Virus record (IMG/VR): IMGVR_UViG_2802429242_000002
Coordinates: 1 to 5,028 of that record
Length of the DNA: 5,028 nucleotides
Source of the DNA: a virus
Lineage: Duplodnaviria > Heunggongvirae > Uroviricota > Caudoviricetes
Direction: 5' to 3' (one strand)
The translations under genes and the position numbers were made by a program. Shown here piece by piece: positions 1 to 5,028 of this stretch; the stretch's first letter is position 1, and the number at the start of each line of letters is the position of its first letter. The notes beneath the pieces are model-generated. The model made no database searches. It was given only the letters and a program-made list of their open reading frames with translations, and was not told the origin of the DNA.

Positions 1-120
1 TCTGACATTCACGGTCAACCAGGCTAACACGTAGAACATGCCCTGCAGGCGTGGTGTACCACTGACCCGGACGAGGACAACGGAAAGTCTGATTGGTAAA
101 ACGTTTGAAAATATTCCGGA

Positions 121-1269
121 TCATTTGCGCCCCCTTACCTCTGAAGGGTTCAGCGACAAATTTATGAGGCAGGCCAGCGCCGAAGCATCATTAATATAGT
201 CATATAAGCTAACAGCCAGCGGAGATTCGGCTTTTGCCAACATAGGATAAAGCTGCTGCAGCCAGACCTGATGAATTGATGAAATGTAGGAACAGAGAAC
301 GCTGGCGTTATGTGCAACGTCGCTCGGTACAGCGGGCTTTGAAAGCTGTTTCTCCATCTGGTTAAAGGCATTGATGTATGCCTCTTTGAACTGGGCAGCA
401 CGTTTACCCGTGAAACCCATAGCAAGAAACGCAAAGCCGTCGCGGGTTATTTGATAGCAAGGTAGTTTGCGGCCTGTGCAATCGGTGTAATCACTCACCG
501 AAAAATTGCGGGCAGTGAATGATGCGGAACATTCAAGCGTGCGGATCTTTTTCAGTACATCGTCATGACGTTTGGAGAAGAAGTTGGCAACAGCCAGGGA
601 TGAAGTAACAGCCTGACCATCAACGATGGCAATTTCAGGTTGAGTGAGGGTTGGGATCGTAGCCATGATGACAGCCTCCGATAACAGTGAATTACCTTCA
701 CCACCGGAAACGCCAATTTCGCTGGTGGTGAACTGAACGGGGTTGGCGTAACCGGCGTTATCGGAAACCGGCGCACCTTTCGGTGCCCCCGTCCAGCCCA
801 CCATAATTTGGGTGTGCGCAGACGCAGACGATAAAAAAAACGCTGGCGCGTCATATATCGCCGATAACATTTCCAGGACGCCAATCCCGGCACCCGCTTT
901 ATAAGGTGCCTGAACAGTGTAACGTCCCGGAATGGCAGAATCAATGTGCTGGTGGTCCTTCACACTCAACAAAATCACGCCTGAATTTCCACAAAGGACT
1001 AAAGCACTCATGCGGGTAGTCTTTGCGAAGATAGATAACGCGCTGTGTTTCTGGCTCCCAACGAATAACATGAACATAAAGTCCTCTTCCGTCACGAAAC
1101 CAGCGGTTAAGTTCCTGCACAACTCGCCCCCCACAGTCAGGTAAAGTTCTCTGTGGTTACTTACAGGCAGGTGATTTGGTAATCTGCATTCATGCCGTAA
1201 CAACAGGTGTTCAGCCACGCGGACCACCAGCTGTTGCGACCAACGGTTATTTGCCGTTAAACTGTTCAT
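121..1269 (-). CDS. Rha-family phage regulatory protein (antirepressor-like), with a ~200-aa N-terminal region of unknown function
   Basis: 382-codon ORF. Residues ~205-305 (TLTQPEIAIVDGQAVTSSLAVANFFSKRHDDVLKKIRTLE ... YQITRDGFAFLAMGFTGKRAAQFKEAYINAFNQME) match the Rha-family signature as I recall it (KRHDnVLr ... TRDGF..LvMGFTG..A.qFK.aYI..FN.ME). Start ATG 1267-1269 overlaps the upstream gene's stop as ATGA (stop 1266-1268), with GGAG 10 nt upstream. The N-terminal half uses E. coli-like codons (CCG, GGT, ACC, GAA, AAC) and its other frames look like shadow ORFs. Alternative internal start ATG at 664-666 (M202) has a strong GGAGG SD 8 nt upstream and would give a 181-aa Rha-only protein. 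Confidence 0.6.
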   Translation of the reverse strand: MNSLTANNRWSQQLVVRVAEHLLLRHECRLPNHLPVSNHRELYLTVGGELCRNLTAGFVTEEDFMFMLFVGSQKHSALSIFAKTTRMSALVLCGNSGVILLSVKDHQHIDSAIPGRYTVQAPYKAGAGIGVLEMLSAIYDAPAFFLSSASAHTQIMVGWTGAPKGAPVSDNAGYANPVQFTTSEIGVSGGEGNSLLSEAVIMATIPTLTQPEIAIVDGQAVTSSLAVANFFSKRHDDVLKKIRTLECSASFTARNFSVSDYTDCTGRKLPCYQITRDGFAFLAMGFTGKRAAQFKEAYINAFNQMEKQLSKPAVPSDVAHNASVLCSYISSIHQVWLQQLYPMLAKAESPLAVSLYDYINDASALACLINLSLNPSEVRGRK

Positions 1270-1850
1270 GCGTTAGTTTCTCCACAACCAGAAGCAATCG
1301 ACGCCACGACGCCCGGAGCTGCACACTCGCGGGCGTTACTCTTTTCCGGCGCACAAAAAACACGAAATAACAGTGTTAAATGCTCCTGCCACTTCGCCAT
1401 TACTTGGTAGCTGTTCTCTTCGATTTGCTCACGCTCAGCCTGATCAATAACTCCATCAGCAGTTGCCTTGCGTAAGTACTGGGAATGCTTGCCAATCCAT
1501 TCTATTGACTCCATCAGCCGCTGATTAATGTCACCATTGTCAATGTCATCAATGACCACCAGCGGCACAAACACCCCATTACTACGACGGGCTATTGCAT
1601 CCGTTACATGCCTGGTACCACTGGCATCCTGTAAAACCATGGCCCACTCGAGTGGAAAAATTTGATCCCCACCGCTACGCAGTCTGTTATGCAATTGATC
1701 TTTTGCTGGGGTGATATCATCAGATTTATACAAACCAAGAATTTCTGCTGCTTCCTCATAGCCATGAGGTAAATCAGCAATCGTTCTTCGTATTGCTGCC
1801 ACCAGCCATGCTGGTTGTTTATCAACTTTCCATTCAGGTTCTTTACCCAC
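1266..1850 (-). CDS. CII-like / YdaT-like early regulatory protein
   Basis: Follows the Cro-like gene on the same strand, the position of lambda cII and Rac ydaT. I favour a GTG start at 1848-1850, with GAGGAA SD 6 nt upstream and a 28-nt gap after the Cro-like stop. The track ORF extends to ATG 1961, but that start and the in-frame ATGs at 1928/1925 lack an SD and would overlap the Cro-like gene by 47-83 nt. The DQLHNRLRSGG stretch loosely resembles what I recall of YdaT-family proteins; family assignment is from memory and position only. Confidence 0.55.
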   Translation of the reverse strand: MGKEPEWKVDKQPAWLVAAIRRTIADLPHGYEEAAEILGLYKSDDITPAKDQLHNRLRSGGDQIFPLEWAMVLQDASGTRHVTDAIARRSNGVFVPLVVIDDIDNGDINQRLMESIEWIGKHSQYLRKATADGVIDQAEREQIEENSYQVMAKWQEHLTLLFRVFCAPEKSNARECAAPGVVASIASGCGETNA

Positions 1851-1878
1851 GGTTAATTCCTCATTTCTGTGGTTACGT

Positions 1879-2142
1879 TTACGCAGCTGAACCGCTAACT
1901 TTTGAATAGCACTCAGGTAATCCATCATTTGGATTGGGGTAAATATCAGGACGCAATTCATGAGGGGTCACGGACCAGTTTCCCAACTCACAAAGTTGTA
2001 AAACCCGTTCTGACGGGACTTGATTGTTAATTACCCAATTAGCGACGGATTGAGTGGACTTAAAACCAAAGCGACGGGCTACTTCAGATAAAGATTTTCC
2101 CGCAGCTTTTACTGCTTTCTCTGTGTAGTTTTGAGATGACAT
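1879..2142 (-). CDS. Cro/YdaS-like helix-turn-helix regulator
   Basis: 87 aa. Sequence SLSEVARRFGFKSTQSVANWVINNQVPSERVLQLCELGNWSVTPHELRPDIY fits the YdaS/Cro-like pattern (HTH followed by a conserved HELRPD motif). Divergent from the repressor gene. GAGGAG SD 6 nt upstream of ATG 2140-2142. Confidence 0.85.
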   Translation of the reverse strand: MSSQNYTEKAVKAAGKSLSEVARRFGFKSTQSVANWVINNQVPSERVLQLCELGNWSVTPHELRPDIYPNPNDGLPECYSKVSGSAA

Positions 2143-2150
2143 ACCTTTCT

Positions 2151-2167
2151 CCTCTGAAATTCAGAGG
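2151..2167. promoter_or_regulatory. Perfect 17-bp palindrome CCTCTGAAATTCAGAGG overlapping the Cro-like gene's SD and predicted transcript start
   Basis: Read directly: 8-bp perfect inverted arms around a single central base. Lies between the predicted PR-like -10 (2169-2174) and the Cro-like start codon. Its sequence differs from the CTAC-N5-GTAG operator family. Confidence 0.4.
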
Positions 2168-2168
2168 G

Positions 2169-2197
2169 ATAATGCTACTTAAAATAGCAAAATGCAA
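2169..2197 (-). promoter_or_regulatory. PR-like promoter for the Cro-like operon (-35 TTGCAT, 17-bp spacer containing operator, -10 CATTAT)
   Basis: Minus-strand sequence TTGCATTTTGCTATTTTAAGTAGCATTAT. It matches the plus-strand element at 4129-4157 (TTGATTTTTGCTACTTTTGGTAGCAGAAT) at 22 of 29 positions with identical layout, supporting paired early promoters. Hexamers are moderate matches to sigma70 consensus. Confidence 0.45.
2173..2189. promoter_or_regulatory. Operator O_R1-like 17-mer TGCTACTTAAAATAGCA
   Basis: Inverted arms TGCTA/TAGCA. Shares the CTAC ... (G/A)TAG half-site pattern with sites at 2196-2212, 2241-2257, 4114-4130 and 4137-4153. Sits in the spacer of the PR-like promoter. 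Confidence 0.5.
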
Positions 2198-2212
2198 CTA
2201 CTTAAAATAGAA
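2196..2212. promoter_or_regulatory. Operator O_R2-like 17-mer AACTACTTAAAATAGAA
   Basis: Exact direct repeat of the 13-nt core CTACTTAAAATAG from O_R1, centre-to-centre spacing 23 bp, comparable to lambda operator spacing. Overlaps the -35 of the PR-like promoter. Confidence 0.45.
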
Positions 2213-2240
2213 ATGACTAGCGTATGTGATGTGAGTAATC

Positions 2241-2257
2241 TTCTACCTATGGTAGAA
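2241..2257. promoter_or_regulatory. Operator O_R3-like 17-mer TTCTACCTATGGTAGAA overlapping the favoured repressor start codon
   Basis: 7-bp perfect inverted arms (TTCTACC/GGTAGAA) with CTAC and GTAG at the same positions as in the other operators. Contains ATG 2249-2251. Confidence 0.45.
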
Positions 2258-2953
2258 GAACAGAAGTATCCAGATTTCGCCAAGAGACTAAACGAGCTAA
2301 TGACAAACAAGGGAATTTCTGTCACCCAACTCAAAAGTCTTGTGGGCGTTACATATGAAATGGCGCGGCGATACACAATCGGCGCTGCGAAGCCTCGTGC
2401 CTCTGTCATGAATAAACTTGCATTGGCTCTGGGGGTATCAGCTTCATATTTAGAATATGGTGTTGGCGAGAGAGAAGGATGTAAGGAAATGACAAGCATC
2501 CCCAATCCAACAAAACCCGATGTATACAGGATAGAAGTTTTGGATCTTAGCGTTAGCGCAGGACCTGGGACCTATATGCTTTCAGACTATGTTGATGTGC
2601 TCTACGCCATTGAGTTCACAACAGAACATGCCCGTTCTCTTTTCGGCAACCGTTCTCAGGATGATATTAAGGTTATGACTGTAAATGGCGATAGTATGTC
2701 CCCTACTCTCGTTTCCGGAGACCGACTGTTTGTCGACATTTCTGTTCGTCACTTCCAGACTGATGGAGTTTACTCTTTCGTTTACGGTAAGACTTTTCAT
2801 GTCAAACGTCTTCAAATGCAAGGTGACAAGCTAGCCGTTCTTTCGGATAACCCCGCCTATGAGAAATGGTATATCGATGAAAAATCGCAGGATCAGCTTT
2901 ATGTAATGGGCAAGGCGTTGATTCACGAATCTATAAAATACAACCGATTGTAA
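2249..2953 (+). CDS. cI/LexA-type prophage repressor (N-terminal XRE-family HTH, C-terminal S24 self-cleaving peptidase domain)
   Basis: HTH region FAKRLNELMTNKGISVTQLKSLVGVTYEMARRYTIGAAKPRASVMNKLALALGVSASYLEYG. Candidate Ala-Gly cleavage site in LSVSAGPG. Serine nucleophile in the GDSMSPT motif and lysine in FHVKRL, as in LexA/lambda cI. Start is uncertain: the track ORF begins at ATG 2192 (253 aa), but 2192 and the ATG at 2213 lie inside the PR-like -35/operator region. ATG 2249 (234 aa) leaves ~9 residues before helix 1 and may be leaderless. None of the three has an SD. Confidence 0.85.
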   Translation: MVEEQKYPDFAKRLNELMTNKGISVTQLKSLVGVTYEMARRYTIGAAKPRASVMNKLALALGVSASYLEYGVGEREGCKEMTSIPNPTKPDVYRIEVLDLSVSAGPGTYMLSDYVDVLYAIEFTTEHARSLFGNRSQDDIKVMTVNGDSMSPTLVSGDRLFVDISVRHFQTDGVYSFVYGKTFHVKRLQMQGDKLAVLSDNPAYEKWYIDEKSQDQLYVMGKALIHESIKYNRL

Positions 2954-2997
2954 AACTCAATCCTTTCAGGATTAAAAGATCTAAAAGGATAATAATA

Positions 2998-3360
2998 ATG
3001 AAATCTGAACTATTTCATAGCGAAGCAAATTCAGAAATTATCACCGCAGATGAGTTTATTGATTTCATAAACTCTTTCAAAAAGCCTTTAATTTGCCAAA
3101 TTTGCGGAAATCAATCATGGAGTGTAGTCGGTACTCTAGAACTTGAAGTTGAAGACAATCAGCCAAAACATCACGTAATCGAAGTTCTCAGCTATGCCCA
3201 ATACAAACCTGAAACTGATAGCGCTATAAATTATCCTGGTGGTATGCCGCTGTTTCGAATCACCTGTGATCACTGTGCACATGTACTTCTTTTTTCTTAT
3301 AAAAAAGCTAGATCATTGATCCAAAAAAGAAAAAATGAAAAAGAAGAGGATGGGAAATGA
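2998..3360 (+). CDS. Hypothetical small zinc-ribbon protein (two CxxC pairs), cargo gene downstream of repressor
   Basis: 120 aa with Cys33/Cys36 (CQIC) and Cys90/Cys93 (CDHC). AAAGGA SD 8 nt upstream of ATG 2998. Lysine-rich acidic tail. Markedly AT-rich (about one third G+C by hand count of 3001-3060, against about half in 601-660). I recognise no family. Confidence 0.7.
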   Translation: MKSELFHSEANSEIITADEFIDFINSFKKPLICQICGNQSWSVVGTLELEVEDNQPKHHVIEVLSYAQYKPETDSAINYPGGMPLFRITCDHCAHVLLFSYKKARSLIQKRKNEKEEDGK

Positions 3361-3989
3361 CGCGACCTTATCTCAGAGCAGTACCAAACTGTGGATCTGG
3401 TATTGATAAGTGTGACCTTTACCCCAATGTTAAGAACAGGCTGCGCGTCGGTATAGAAGAAATGTATACTGATTTTATCGAATCCGCAGATGAAACTTAC
3501 AAAACTGATGGGGGAAATAAAATGTCATCAGTTAGTCGAGAAGAAATTCAAGCACTTTTAGCTGCCAATAAAGCAGAAATGGAGTCCATTGCATCCTCTA
3601 TTAGAGTTGAAATGGCTTTATCTCGCGAGAACACAAACGTTCAGCTAGCATCTCTAAATTCAGCCATCAATTCTATCTCTTCGAAAATCGAAGGCAAAAT
3701 GGACAGTGTTGACGGGGATGTGAAGGCCATCAATGGTAGATTCGAAGGTATACAAGGCCAAATTACTGGAATAAATACAGCCATTAGTGGTATTCAATCT
3801 GGAATTTCTACCAGACTTGCTATTTTTGGAGTTATCATTGCGGTCATAGTTGCATTACCTAGCATAATTTCTGCTTTTAAAGATACTTCGCCAGTAGTTC
3901 AACCAGTTACACAACAACCAAGTGTTAAACATCTCAACCAAGAACCAATTACTCCACAAGTATTACCTCCGCAGGGAAAAGCAAACTAA
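3357..3989 (+). CDS. Hypothetical coiled-coil protein with single C-terminal transmembrane helix and proline-rich tail
   Basis: ATG 3357 overlaps the upstream stop as ATGA, with GAGGA 6 nt upstream. Alternative start ATG 3522 (M56) has GGGGGA 6 nt upstream. Residues ~60-150 are heptad-like and Ser/Ile/Gly-rich; hydrophobic segment LAIFGVIIAVIVALPSIISAF (~154-174); tail rich in P, Q and V. Architecture resembles small phage membrane proteins such as XhlA-like or exclusion proteins, by resemblance only. Confidence 0.65.
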   Translation: MTRPYLRAVPNCGSGIDKCDLYPNVKNRLRVGIEEMYTDFIESADETYKTDGGNKMSSVSREEIQALLAANKAEMESIASSIRVEMALSRENTNVQLASLNSAINSISSKIEGKMDSVDGDVKAINGRFEGIQGQITGINTAISGIQSGISTRLAIFGVIIAVIVALPSIISAFKDTSPVVQPVTQQPSVKHLNQEPITPQVLPPQGKAN

Positions 3990-4012
3990 ACCGGCTTTAT
4001 GCCGGTTTTTTT
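3989..4012 (+). terminator. Rho-independent terminator after the cargo cassette
   Basis: AACCGGC-TTTAT-GCCGGTT hairpin immediately after the TAA stop (3987-3989), followed by a run of seven T (4006-4012). Confidence 0.8.
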
Positions 4013-4113
4013 CTATACAAACGCCCCCTCTTTGTCTTGAATCACATCACAACACATTTAAAAAACATTTTAAATTCAAAGCATTAAACGCATCAACGCA
4101 TATCAAACAAATT

Positions 4114-4130
4114 ATCTACTTTTAGTTGTT
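4114..4130. promoter_or_regulatory. Operator O_L2-like 17-mer ATCTACTTTTAGTTGTT (weaker half-site)
   Basis: CTAC half-site at the conserved position, second half GTTG instead of GTAG. Centre lies 23 bp from O_L1, the same spacing as O_R1 to O_R2. Overlaps the -35 of the PL-like promoter. Confidence 0.35.
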
Positions 4131-4157
4131 GATTTTTGCTACTTTTGGTAGCAGAAT
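4129..4157 (+). promoter_or_regulatory. PL-like early promoter (-35 TTGATT, 17-bp spacer containing operator, -10 CAGAAT)
   Basis: Matches the PR-like element at 2169-2197 at 22 of 29 positions in the same promoter orientation. Located downstream of the repressor cassette terminator and upstream of plus-strand small ORFs, as for lambda PL/OL. Confidence 0.45.
4137..4153. promoter_or_regulatory. Operator O_L1-like 17-mer TGCTACTTTTGGTAGCA
   Basis: 6-bp perfect inverted arms TGCTAC/GTAGCA. Same family as the O_R sites. Lies in the spacer and -10 of the PL-like promoter. Confidence 0.5.
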
Positions 4158-4361
4158 TGTTTTAACAACAACGAACAGGCAGGACGCCCACGAAGTAGCC
4201 GCCTGGGGCATATGAAGTCCAGGATGATTCGTTGAGTCATGTTGTGCCACTAGGCACTCATGTTAAAGCAGGTGTATGAAATGAAAGTCCAGATTTTAAA
4301 CAATAACTGTGAAGTCGTTTAGGCGTAAAACATGACCGCGCGTAGACCAAGGGAGGAAAAA

Positions 4362-4538
4362 GTGGGAATAGTTAGAAATCAAGCAGATATATTGAAAATC
4401 AGCTCTGAATTGCTTGGAGTTTTGAAAAGTGAGCTCACCGCACATGGCATCGAGCCCACTGACGAAAATTTAAGTTGGGTTTTGTCGATTATTCAACAAT
4501 CACTCAAGCCCAGCCTCAGCAAACTTTTTATCGAGTAG
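4362..4538 (+). CDS. Hypothetical small protein, first ORF of the putative PL-like transcript
   Basis: Strong SD AAGGGAGG with a 5-nt spacer to GTG 4362 (58 codons). The track ORF starts at ATG 4332 (68 aa) with only a weak AGG upstream. I see no arginine-rich N-type motif and recognise no family. Confidence 0.4.
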   Translation: MGIVRNQADILKISSELLGVLKSELTAHGIEPTDENLSWVLSIIQQSLKPSLSKLFIE

Positions 4539-4691
4539 TGCTTCGAACTTATCGTAAAGCTTGCTTATGTCGTCTATCGGGTTTTCTGACGTACTGTAAT
4601 TTTTATCTGATGTCATGGCAGCAGTCTGATATGCAGTGTGAGTCTTAACCGATAGTTGGAATAAATAAAGAATTTTTTCTTCTTTGGTCAT
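4500..4691 (-). CDS. Hypothetical small protein (63 aa), convergent with the 4362..4538 ORF
   Basis: ATG at 4689-4691 with AAGGA 8 nt upstream; the track ORF extends to 4733. Sequence MTKEEKILYLFQLSVKTHTAYQ...KFAEAGLE. Overlaps the 3' end of the plus-strand ORF by 39 nt, so one of the two may be spurious. Confidence 0.4.
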   Translation of the reverse strand: MTKEEKILYLFQLSVKTHTAYQTAAMTSDKNYSTSENPIDDISKLYDKFEALLDKKFAEAGLE

Positions 4692-4930
4692 GACTATTTC
4701 CTTCTTGGCTATATGAAAACACCAAGATACCACCGAGCCTGAAGTGGTGAAAAGACAGGCACATAACAGCTAAGTATTTTCAACCAGAGAGAATCCTTAG
4801 CGTTGTGGTGAATGCGCAGGCTGATGCGCGAAAGACATTGCAGCTATTGCGGAAAAGAGCTGTTCGGCGGGGCAATTAAACGCCCGTGAGAGTCTGAAAT
4901 AACCGCAAGCCGGAGATCAGCACCGGTCAC

Positions 4931-4995
4931 CACAACAGCCACTGCTTTGGCGGTACCAGTTTGTACACTTGCCTCCGGCTGGTACCGCTCTTTTT
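4931..4995 (+). ncRNA. Candidate DicF-like small RNA ending in an intrinsic terminator
   Basis: The stretch CTTTGGCGGTACCAGTTTGTAC resembles the DicF segment UUUGGCGGUAUCAGUUUUAC as I recall it from the E. coli Qin prophage, and a terminator hairpin follows as in DicF. Lies downstream of the repressor in the early-left direction, as dicF does relative to dicA. Based on memory, not a search; 5' boundary is approximate. Confidence 0.3.
4949..4995 (+). terminator. Rho-independent terminator (10-bp perfect stem GCGGTACCAG / CTGGTACCGC, then TCTTTTT)
   Basis: Read directly: arms at 4950-4959 and 4979-4988, 19-nt loop, T-run 4991-4995. Confidence 0.7.
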
Positions 4996-5028
4996 ACAAA
5001 ACAGAGAAGAGCATCACCGGACGACGGG

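Follow-up and report, generated by a model that had tools for sequence, protein, structure and literature searches.

A stop-free 382-codon phage frame that very likely spans several genes, with Rha under a proposed IsrK/C4-type RNA switch

Described RNA switches and the prophage locus

The c4-icd-ant system in the immI region of phages P1 and P7 reportedly goes back to Citron and Schuster in 1990. In this system, which the Rfam families RF01695 and RF03163 also record, the a' and b' sequences of its C4 RNA are complementary to upstream a1/b1 and downstream a2/b2 sites, a2/b2 cover the ribosome-binding site of the downstream gene, and specificity types arise by co-variation of these short sequences. 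The same properties are found in a 5,028-nucleotide stretch of virus DNA (Caudoviricetes; IMG/VR record IMGVR_UViG_2802429242_000002, positions 1 to 5,028; the whole stretch is hereafter called the window), where a 382-codon open reading frame (ORF) at 121..1269 on the minus strand includes a gene for a Rha-family regulator. The original prediction, made from the letters of the DNA, had taken this ORF, which is indeed present, for one Rha-domain gene with an unusual N-terminal region of about 200 residues. We consider it very likely that the ORF is a composite frame over separate elements, with Rha under the control of an RNA switch.

A second described system is the isrK-orf45-anrP module of Gifsy-1, in which transcripts running past the IsrK terminator are translationally silent mRNAs, and short IsrK acting in trans activates translation of orf45 and hence of anrP (Hershko-Shalev et al. 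2016, PMC4825925). The same study likened IsrK to seqA of P4 and the downstream RNA to P4 CI, which acts through premature transcription termination according to the literature cited there (PMC4825925). In Gifsy-1, isrK lies at 34316..34240 and C4 at 34214..34131, and a 45-codon ORF runs from the C4 AUG to a stop overlapping the anrP ATG.

The window resembles Gifsy-1 in both order and spacing, with a promoter (putative in the window), an IsrK-type RNA and its terminator, a C4 RNA with a 5' AUG, a2/b2 with a Shine-Dalgarno (SD) sequence and then the regulator gene, and in both a sequence complementary to the C4 loop precedes the regulator SD. However, the Gifsy-1 effector AnrP is an ORF6N-domain antirepressor and that of the window a Rha-domain protein, the orf45 stop overlaps the anrP ATG in another frame whereas the frame of the window continues in frame into Rha, and the Gifsy-1 module lies by antQ in the late region whereas that of the window sits in the early-right operon after ymfL, ymfM and DUF4222. 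Compared with P1/P7, the window has no Ant homologue, its downstream product being of the Rha type, and no separate icd-like ORF ending in a stop, since the frame opening at the C4 AUG reaches Rha uninterrupted by a stop; its upstream a1/b1 segment is a terminated IsrK-type small RNA (sRNA). The seqA-CI RNA-seqC region of P4 gives the same isrK-like and C4 Rfam matches, but a2 of the window lies on an SD, suggesting translational control, where P4 CI works by premature termination, and the downstream genes differ. An isrK and C4 pair is also found upstream of antirepressor-type genes in Stx2 II (P22 Ant-like), phiV10 (Bro-N) and APSE-7 (Bro-N), where, as in Gifsy-1, it is intergenic and separated from the gene by stop codons; the APSE-7 RNAs are already annotated.

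The window module has the known architecture of an IsrK/C4-controlled regulator, with Rha as its putative effector. The long frame and the parts of the module are as follows.

121..1269, minus strand: stop-free 382-codon composite frame (ORF list, with selection assessed segment by segment)
916..944, minus strand: putative IsrK promoter, with a -35 TTGATT at 944..939, a 17-nt spacer and a -10 TACACT at 921..916
909..833, minus strand: IsrK-like sRNA (Rfam RF01394, gathering-threshold scan)
721..808, minus strand: C4-type antisense RNA of the P1/P7 c4 and P4 CI family (Rfam RF01695)
764..757, minus strand: a' of C4, in a loop, CCGAUAAC
749..743, minus strand: b' of C4, single-stranded, ACGCCAA
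675..716, minus strand: target sites on the Rha mRNA, b2 at 716..710 (UUGGCGU) and a2 at 685..677 (GUUAUCGGA)
121..666, minus strand: Rha-family regulator gene, 181 amino acids (aa) from M202 (Pfam, ratio of non-synonymous to synonymous polymorphism (pN/pS), conserved SD-ATG)

Read 5' to 3' on the minus strand, the frame would cover three elements, namely a ymfM-like gene translationally coupled to ymfL, a DUF4222 gene out of frame within the 3' half of the ymfM-like gene, and an autonomous module of promoter, IsrK-like sRNA with terminator, C4-type RNA, b2/a2 and Rha gene. By analogy with P1/P7 c4-icd-ant and Gifsy-1 isrK-orf45-anrP, we infer that C4 represses Rha and the IsrK-like RNA activates it. 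In this scheme a' and b' of C4 would pair with a2 and b2, in cis within a read-through transcript or, once C4 is processed, in trans, hiding the Rha SD and keeping Rha off, and the short IsrK-like RNA, with its target-like a1/b1, would titrate C4, so that the SD is freed and Rha is turned on. Rha might then act as an antirepressor-like regulator of the lysis-lysogeny decision.

Two structured RNAs and the probable start of Rha

Both RNAs match their Rfam models from end to end, C4 over all 87 model positions with E = 7e-16 and 82.8 bits, where the gathering score is 45, and the IsrK-like RNA over all 77 with E = 7e-12 and 61.7 bits, where it is 50; the c4-a1b1 model gives a weak match at 922..870 (21.4 bits, E = 0.006). 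The minimum free energy (MFE) fold of C4 is the Rfam structure (z = -5.1), a long closing stem with two internal hairpins amounting to 27 pairs. Across a covariation set of 12 sequences, Gifsy-1, P4 and APSE-7 included, these positions are paired in 100% of 324 cells, against 33-48% in slid controls, and 12 of the 27 pairs have changed on both sides, a level of compensatory change that 0 of 500 shuffles reach. The pairing pattern is the same on the 25 window-type variants.

The DNA of these RNAs carries no mark of a protein. The isrK-C4 stretch (codons 121-196) has pN/pS values of 0.92, 0.91 and 0.98 in the three frames over nine types, and the view that it is coding, which the original prediction based partly on the absence of stops, is not supported here: no frame is specifically selected and two structured RNAs are present. 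A second frame (552..944, 130 codons) is likewise open over the RNA stretch. Because this frame is open too and none is under selection, the openness of codons 121-183 is a property of the RNA sequence, and we discounted openness over the RNA genes as evidence of translation. It arises largely because G+C-rich structured sequences hold few stop triplets; the ymfM frame of this lineage would, in addition, have lost the stop present in e14-type phages.

The IsrK-like RNA has two 5' hairpins, with a1 (868..861) single-stranded and b1 (884..878) in the loop of hairpin 2, and its 3' end is an intrinsic terminator (852..833), a G+C hairpin at 852..839 followed by a U8 tail. Downstream of it come the C4-like element and the position of an antirepressor-type gene, as in Gifsy-1. 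The transcript is predicted to start at G909, in a conserved arrangement (TTGATT-N17-TACACT-N6-G909), and the promoter is proposed from this sequence together with the matching geometry upstream of the characterised Gifsy-1 isrK. In the related loci L053, L052 and L054, homology begins exactly at ATTGATTC, the proposed -35 hexamer, and not at a start codon. Upstream starts for an 'Ash-Rha' protein at V59, M65, M67, M87 or V103 were rejected, because these codons are fixed by the DUF4222 protein and the module begins at the -35 hexamer.

The U-tail of the terminator is the run of eight A at 833-840 (T8 on the coding strand) that the original prediction had singled out as a possible slippage site or fusion mark. 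A homopolymer of eight within an ORF could in principle be a programmed slippage or phase-variation site, or the junction of a frameshifted pseudogene, but here either is extremely unlikely: the run stands directly 3' of the G+C hairpin, at the 3' end of the IsrK model, and among 89 relatives it is T6 in 65, T7 in 23 and T8 in the window only, with the frame never changed. The length of eight in the window comes from a single TCT-to-TTT substitution.

The RNAs and Rha are linked by matching recognition sites. The a' loop (CCGAUAAC) is complementary to GUUAUCGG both at 868..861 (a1, in the IsrK-like RNA) and at 685..678 (a2), and b' is complementary to UUGGCGU both at 884..878 (b1) and at 716..710 (b2). 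These sites co-vary three ways: the 25 unique variants fall into 8 a' types and at least 3 b' types, all of which have their cognate a1/a2 (8-10 nt) and b1/b2 (7 nt), and mean complementarity is 9.2 nt for cognate against 5.1 nt for non-cognate sites. The end of a2 always falls 9-12 nt before the Rha ATG, and in the window a2 overlaps the SD sequence GGAGG (679..675). Folding the read-through RNA (909..650) to its MFE structure (-113 kcal/mol, z = -5.4) brings a' together with a2 and the SD (GUUAUCGGAGG) and b' with b2, an arrangement that is predicted to hide the Rha SD.

As originally described, the Rha domain lies in the C-terminal half of the ORF, with Phage_pRha (PF09669) matching residues 222-307 (105.9 bits against a cut-off of 29.9, E = 1.7e-30) and TIGR02681 scoring 102.9 bits against a cut-off of 45.95. 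The internal ATG at 666-664 (M202), suggested then as the start of a Rha-only isoform, is present with its GGAGG at 679-675 and an 8-nt spacer, and the SD-like motif and ATG are kept in 89 of 89 relatives, including those in which the residues encoded there differ. It is the most probable genuine start codon of Rha. The 181-aa product holds the whole Rha domain (Phage_pRha E = 5e-31), and the standalone Rha family phrog_518 aligns from its own position 17 to residue 14 of this product. Codons 202-382 have a pN/pS of 0.21-0.37 in frame and of about 1 and about 2 out of frame. The hypervariable block that separates otherwise near-identical relatives is covered by the two RNA matches, and the conserved DNA resumes at the Rha SD. 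Rha stands in the place of the antirepressor in other C4/IsrK modules.

A longer Rha of 227 aa, starting at the AUG at 804..802 (M156) as an orf45 equivalent fused in frame, could be the main product with the 181-aa form minor or absent, which we regard as possible though unlikely. This AUG belongs to the conserved 5' end of the C4 element (AAUUAUGG) and corresponds to the orf45 start of Gifsy-1, where translation of anrP needs translation of orf45; moreover, it is in frame with Rha with no stop between, and the two indels between it and the Rha ATG are both multiples of three. However, the M156-M202 segment has no coding signature, the AUG is buried in the long C4 stem whereas a strong, conserved GGAGG precedes M202, related modules stop after 15-35 codons, and standalone Rha proteins (phrog_518) begin at the equivalent of M202.

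The RNA genes also bear on a protein family. Residues 117-212 of the long frame match Phage_ASH (PF10554) with 67.3 bits against a cut-off of 26, and the region of this match (window 634-921) is covered by the two RNA genes together. The original prediction had named a match of residues 1-200 to a known Rha-family extension as something that would refute it, and this holds in part, through the match to a named family. Yet in its coding frame the match has a pN/pS of about 0.9, as in all frames, hence it is not evolving as a protein. In phage P4 (locus L133, 8168-8692) the old 'cI gene product' coding sequence (CDS), to which the window match corresponds, is itself an Ash match lying on the C4/CI RNA, with an isrK/seqA-like RNA upstream. 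Phage_ASH thus appears to be a conceptual translation of RNA genes and not a protein domain. Rha/Ash proteins adjoining cI have been described in the Eru6, Eru7 and Eru9 Stx phages, with Ash taken as a domain of unknown function (PMC8951638). The architecture of Phage_pRha with PF10554 in the regulatory region is the same as in the window, but that study treats Ash as a protein domain where we see two RNA genes; because the P4 member of Ash sits on the CI RNA, the Ash 'domain' beside Rha in Eru-type Stx phages is best read as RNA genes.

The ymfM-like and DUF4222 genes

Upstream of the module, the long frame runs through two genes in different frames, which have counterparts in e14 of E. coli K-12.

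1121..1269, minus strand: 5' coding part of a ymfM-like gene (SfiC/YmfM family), codons 1-50 (profile match, polymorphism pattern)
1120..941, minus strand, -1 frame relative to the long ORF and under its codons 50-110: DUF4222 gene, 59 aa, GTG start (Pfam, phrog)
4823-5181 of locus L088 (NC_000913.3 1203822-1204180): annotated e14 ymfM
5002-5181 of locus L088: unannotated DUF4222 ORF in the -1 frame within e14 ymfM (Pfam DUF4222, 67 bits)

In the window, the DUF4222 ORF scores 51.1 bits against Pfam DUF4222 (PF13973), whose gathering score is 27 (E = 9.5e-14), and aligns end to end with phrog_1343 (E = 1e-36). Its GTG start, which is ATG in most other genera, is preceded by a G-rich SD-like run, and PGAP lists DUF4222 as a gene of its own in E. 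coli UTME-3. Between the window and Salmonella-type relatives, pN/pS over 941-1120 comes to 0.11-0.12 when the DNA is read as DUF4222 and to 3.1-3.3 when it is read as the long ORF, with 13-14 of about 20 substitutions synonymous in the former and 17.5-18.5 non-synonymous in the latter; the own-frame value is 0.11-0.21 when e14-type relatives are included. Polymorphisms within types give a synonymous to non-synonymous ratio of 17:12 in the DUF4222 frame and of 1:28 in the long frame. Codons 51-109 of the long frame are a shadow of the DUF4222 gene, selected in its frame and not as part of an N-terminal protein region. In locus L052 (840-1503), and also in L054, HigB/HigA-like toxin and antitoxin genes (121 aa and 102 aa, opposite strand) lie between DUF4222 and the isrK promoter, and the long frame is still open in these loci despite the insertion of about 680 nt, reaching 626 codons.

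The first 50 codons are a different case. Their ATG (1269-1267) and the TGA that closes the preceding ymfL-like ORF form an ATGA overlap, the coupling seen in the original prediction, and the window shares the placement of the YmfM family, right after ymfL and with DUF4222 nested in the -1 frame. The likeness to e14 YmfM (Ansari et al., bioRxiv 10.1101/2020.11.19.390815) extends to the MNSLT start and the same ATGA overlap; the gene that follows ymfL in E. coli K-12 e14 is ymfM, of 112 aa and annotated as 'cell division inhibitor YmfM'. In e14-type loci the frame closes about 20 nt short of the DUF4222 stop, giving a protein of 95-118 aa, whereas the window-type frame departs from the family in length, having no stop at +157 and continuing to position 121.

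In profile comparisons (hhalign), residues 1-100 of the window match an 18-member YmfM alignment with E = 2.8e-17 and residues 1-48 alone with E = 1.8e-6, but the N-terminal 50 residues are only weakly similar to YmfM once the shared first 8 residues (MNSLT start) are removed (E = 0.003, probability 10%). Much of the similarity over the first 100 residues is imposed by DUF4222 homology. The YmfM family has a conserved N-terminal domain of about 55 aa; in this comparison the motif LRHECRLxN..NH resembles FRYERRVSN..NH. Within types, polymorphisms in codons 1-50 are synonymous to non-synonymous at 13:14 in the long frame against 7:20 and 5:21 in the other two, and in e14-type relatives the segment of the YmfM frame upstream of DUF4222 has a pN/pS of 0.33 against 1.1 and 1.4; inside the DUF4222 overlap the amino-acid sequence of the YmfM frame is unconstrained (1.66). 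Reading the first 110 codons as a pure DUF4222 shadow was dropped for codons 1-50, because the +1 frame is open in 37 DUF4222 loci and the N-terminal peptide has this pN/pS of 0.33. The earlier view that the upstream 200 or so codons are genuinely coding thus survives for codons 1-50, with a weak-to-moderate signal, and the remainder is not one protein region.

We fetched 40 DUF4222 loci from many Enterobacterales genera, of which 37 were unique. The +1 (YmfM) frame is open in 37 of 37, from 150-300 nt upstream of DUF4222, and closes at +157 to +163 of DUF4222 in 36; the exception (L089, Citrobacter braakii) is of the window type, and its YmfM frame continues through to Rha. No locus has the +2 frame open across DUF4222. 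Given the DUF4222 proteins and an approximate E. coli codon-usage table, simulation puts the chance of an open +1 frame at 2-17% per sequence, and if distinct codon states at stop-sensitive positions are counted conservatively, P comes to about 4e-4 with the same table; simulating with the window's own codon usage gives similar probabilities (5-8%). Among representatives at below 85% nucleotide identity the +1 frame is open in 19 of 19. The ymfM and DUF4222 genes are a conserved out-of-frame overlapping pair, which e14 of E. coli K-12 carries as well.

A -1 frameshift at the G6 run (GUGGGGGGC) that would fuse the YmfM N-domain to DUF4222 was considered and rejected, because the Salmonella-type DUF4222 frame has a stop between the G-run and the GTG and because in most genera DUF4222 comes with an ATG and an SD of its own. 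Window 1150-1174 and 1866-1890 form a direct repeat of 25 nt (80% identical), with a core GTAACCACAGA on the minus strand; one copy lies about 30 nt upstream of the DUF4222 GTG and the other about 16 nt before the GTG at which ymfL probably starts. The GTAACCACAGA core is kept in Salmonella-type and e14-type ymfM, where it encodes ..NHS/R.., and may be a protein motif or a nucleic-acid site. The 231-codon ymfL ORF itself probably starts at GTG 1850-1848 (GAGGA SD about 8 nt upstream) and not at ATG 1961, a start that would put 83 nt of it over the cro-like gene; residues 54-202 are covered by the NCBIfam YmfL model, and RefSeq homologues have about 192 aa.

The overlap bears on SfiC. The e14 DUF4222 ORF has an AAGGAG-N8-TTG start and a stop overlapping the ymfN ATG, and the cloned e14 ymfM ORF cuts only about 7 codons off it. 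Inhibition of the FtsZ ring on expression has been reported only for e14 ymfM DNA (bioRxiv 10.1101/2020.11.19.390815). The published SfiC work cloned or deleted DNA carrying both frames, and its pBAD-ymfM and deletion experiments do not separate them, hence the question of which frame, ymfM or DUF4222, encodes SfiC is raised again. A literature search on an overlapping gene in ymfM, or on the function of DUF4222, found nothing relevant.

Translation of the long frame and annotation of the locus

Several observations weigh against a composite frame with an RNA switch. The long frame is unbroken in all of about 90 related loci (E. coli, Salmonella, Citrobacter; 8 specificity types included), and each of the three indels in the interval from the DUF4222 stop to the Rha ATG has a length that is a multiple of three. 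Longer in-frame isoforms, of 227 aa (AUG 804) or 382 aa (AUG 1269), may be made, and the Gifsy-1 ORF from the C4 AUG is translated (PMC4825925), hence the RNA region need not be free of ribosomes. The putative IsrK promoter agrees with the consensus at only 8 of 12 positions, and a sigma-70 scan of the window did not list it, as it falls below threshold. The antirepressor-like role proposed for Rha is suggested by its gene position only.

The unbroken frame and its indels would also suit a single 382-aa multidomain protein, the annotation in most records, with an N-terminal extension, Ash and Rha, made from the ymfL-coupled ATG and with the RNA matches incidental or secondary. The ATGA overlap with ymfL provides such a protein with a start, Ash is matched with 67 bits, and the ORF is annotated at 382-385 aa, as 'Rha' or 'antirepressor', in C311, mEp460, cdtI and ST64B. 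We nevertheless find it improbable. Codons 121-196 lack a coding signature and codons 51-109 are selected in the other frame, an intrinsic terminator lies inside the ORF, and the second frame is open across the region too. RNA structure and target sites co-vary, the same RNAs are intergenic in other phages, and the P4 type member of Ash is an RNA gene. A sequence search of solved structures gave no match.

It is also conceivable, if improbable, that selection holds the whole 382-codon frame open. Ribosomes re-initiating at the ymfL/ymfM ATGA during lytic transcription would then pass over the DUF4222 overlap, the IsrK terminator hairpin and the C4 element and read into Rha, suppressing termination, unfolding C4 in cis and yielding Rha without antisense control as a YmfM-Rha fusion. 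The loss of the otherwise universal ymfM stop, the three indels in multiples of three and the survival of the frame through the L052/L054 insertion hint at this, and if true it would be a translational override of an RNA immunity switch.

Under the composite reading that we favour, separate ancestral elements have merged into one frame, as the fusion idea of the original prediction suggested: e14-type ymfM has its own stop, and in L053 the module stands without ymfM or DUF4222. Homologues with a stop at an equivalent position, which the original prediction had named as refuting it (two genes or a pseudogene), therefore exist and count against it in part. In phage Ayreon (locus L129, 1182-2018) the composite frame is annotated as a 278-aa CDS, 'immunity region'; there, after the C4 element and the internal ATG, a different and shorter sequence replaces the full Rha gene.

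The locus is widespread. The window comes from an e14/SfV/ST64B-type lambdoid prophage of E. coli and covers its immunity and early-right region. Nearly the same DNA is found in the chromosomes of many E. coli strains, in Stx-converting phages and in the phages cdtI, mEp460 and ST64B, and the window is 95-99% identical to parts of Stx2c phages. Part of the region is matched in 2465 of 5426 complete E. coli genomes, Stx-converting prophages among them. The inspected public records label the product 'Rha family regulator', 'antirepressor' or 'Rha/Ash', at 380-385 aa or 287-296 aa, and those of UTME-3 and phage 1720a-02 split it into a product of 296 or 287 aa and a 59-aa gene of its own. Neither the IsrK-like nor the C4-like RNA is annotated in these records, and the DUF4222 gene is often missing too.

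The neighbouring genes in the window are as follows.

2192-2953, plus strand: CI-like S24 repressor
1879-2142, minus strand: Cro/YdaS-like gene
1266-1961 (ORF), minus strand: YmfL/CII-like gene

Operator-like direct repeats CTACTTAAAATAG occur in two copies in the cro/cI intergenic region (window 2175-2213). Following cI, the plus-strand genes at 2998-3989 encode a 120-aa CxxC...CxxC protein (phrog_4293) and then a 210-aa protein (phrog_5820) with a coiled coil and a C-terminal hydrophobic segment, and they occupy the place where prophages often have exclusion or defence genes. A hairpin and T-run lie at about 3990-4012, 3' of the gene for the 210-aa protein, and about 130 nt past the terminator after this gene (3357-3989) the motifs CTACTTTTAG and CTACTTTTGGTAG, similar to the operator-like repeats, occur at about 4119-4150 and may be a second operator set.

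For annotation, our results mean that Pfam Phage_ASH should not be taken for a protein domain, and that ymfM, the reported SfiC gene, overlaps a strongly selected DUF4222 gene across many Enterobacterales genera, which puts the active product in question. A probable RNA switch that acts at the Rha ribosome-binding site and has at least 8 specificity types has been invisible in the inspected annotation, because the RNAs, and often DUF4222 too, are unannotated there. This regulatory logic would be relevant to studies of prophage induction and Shiga-toxin release.

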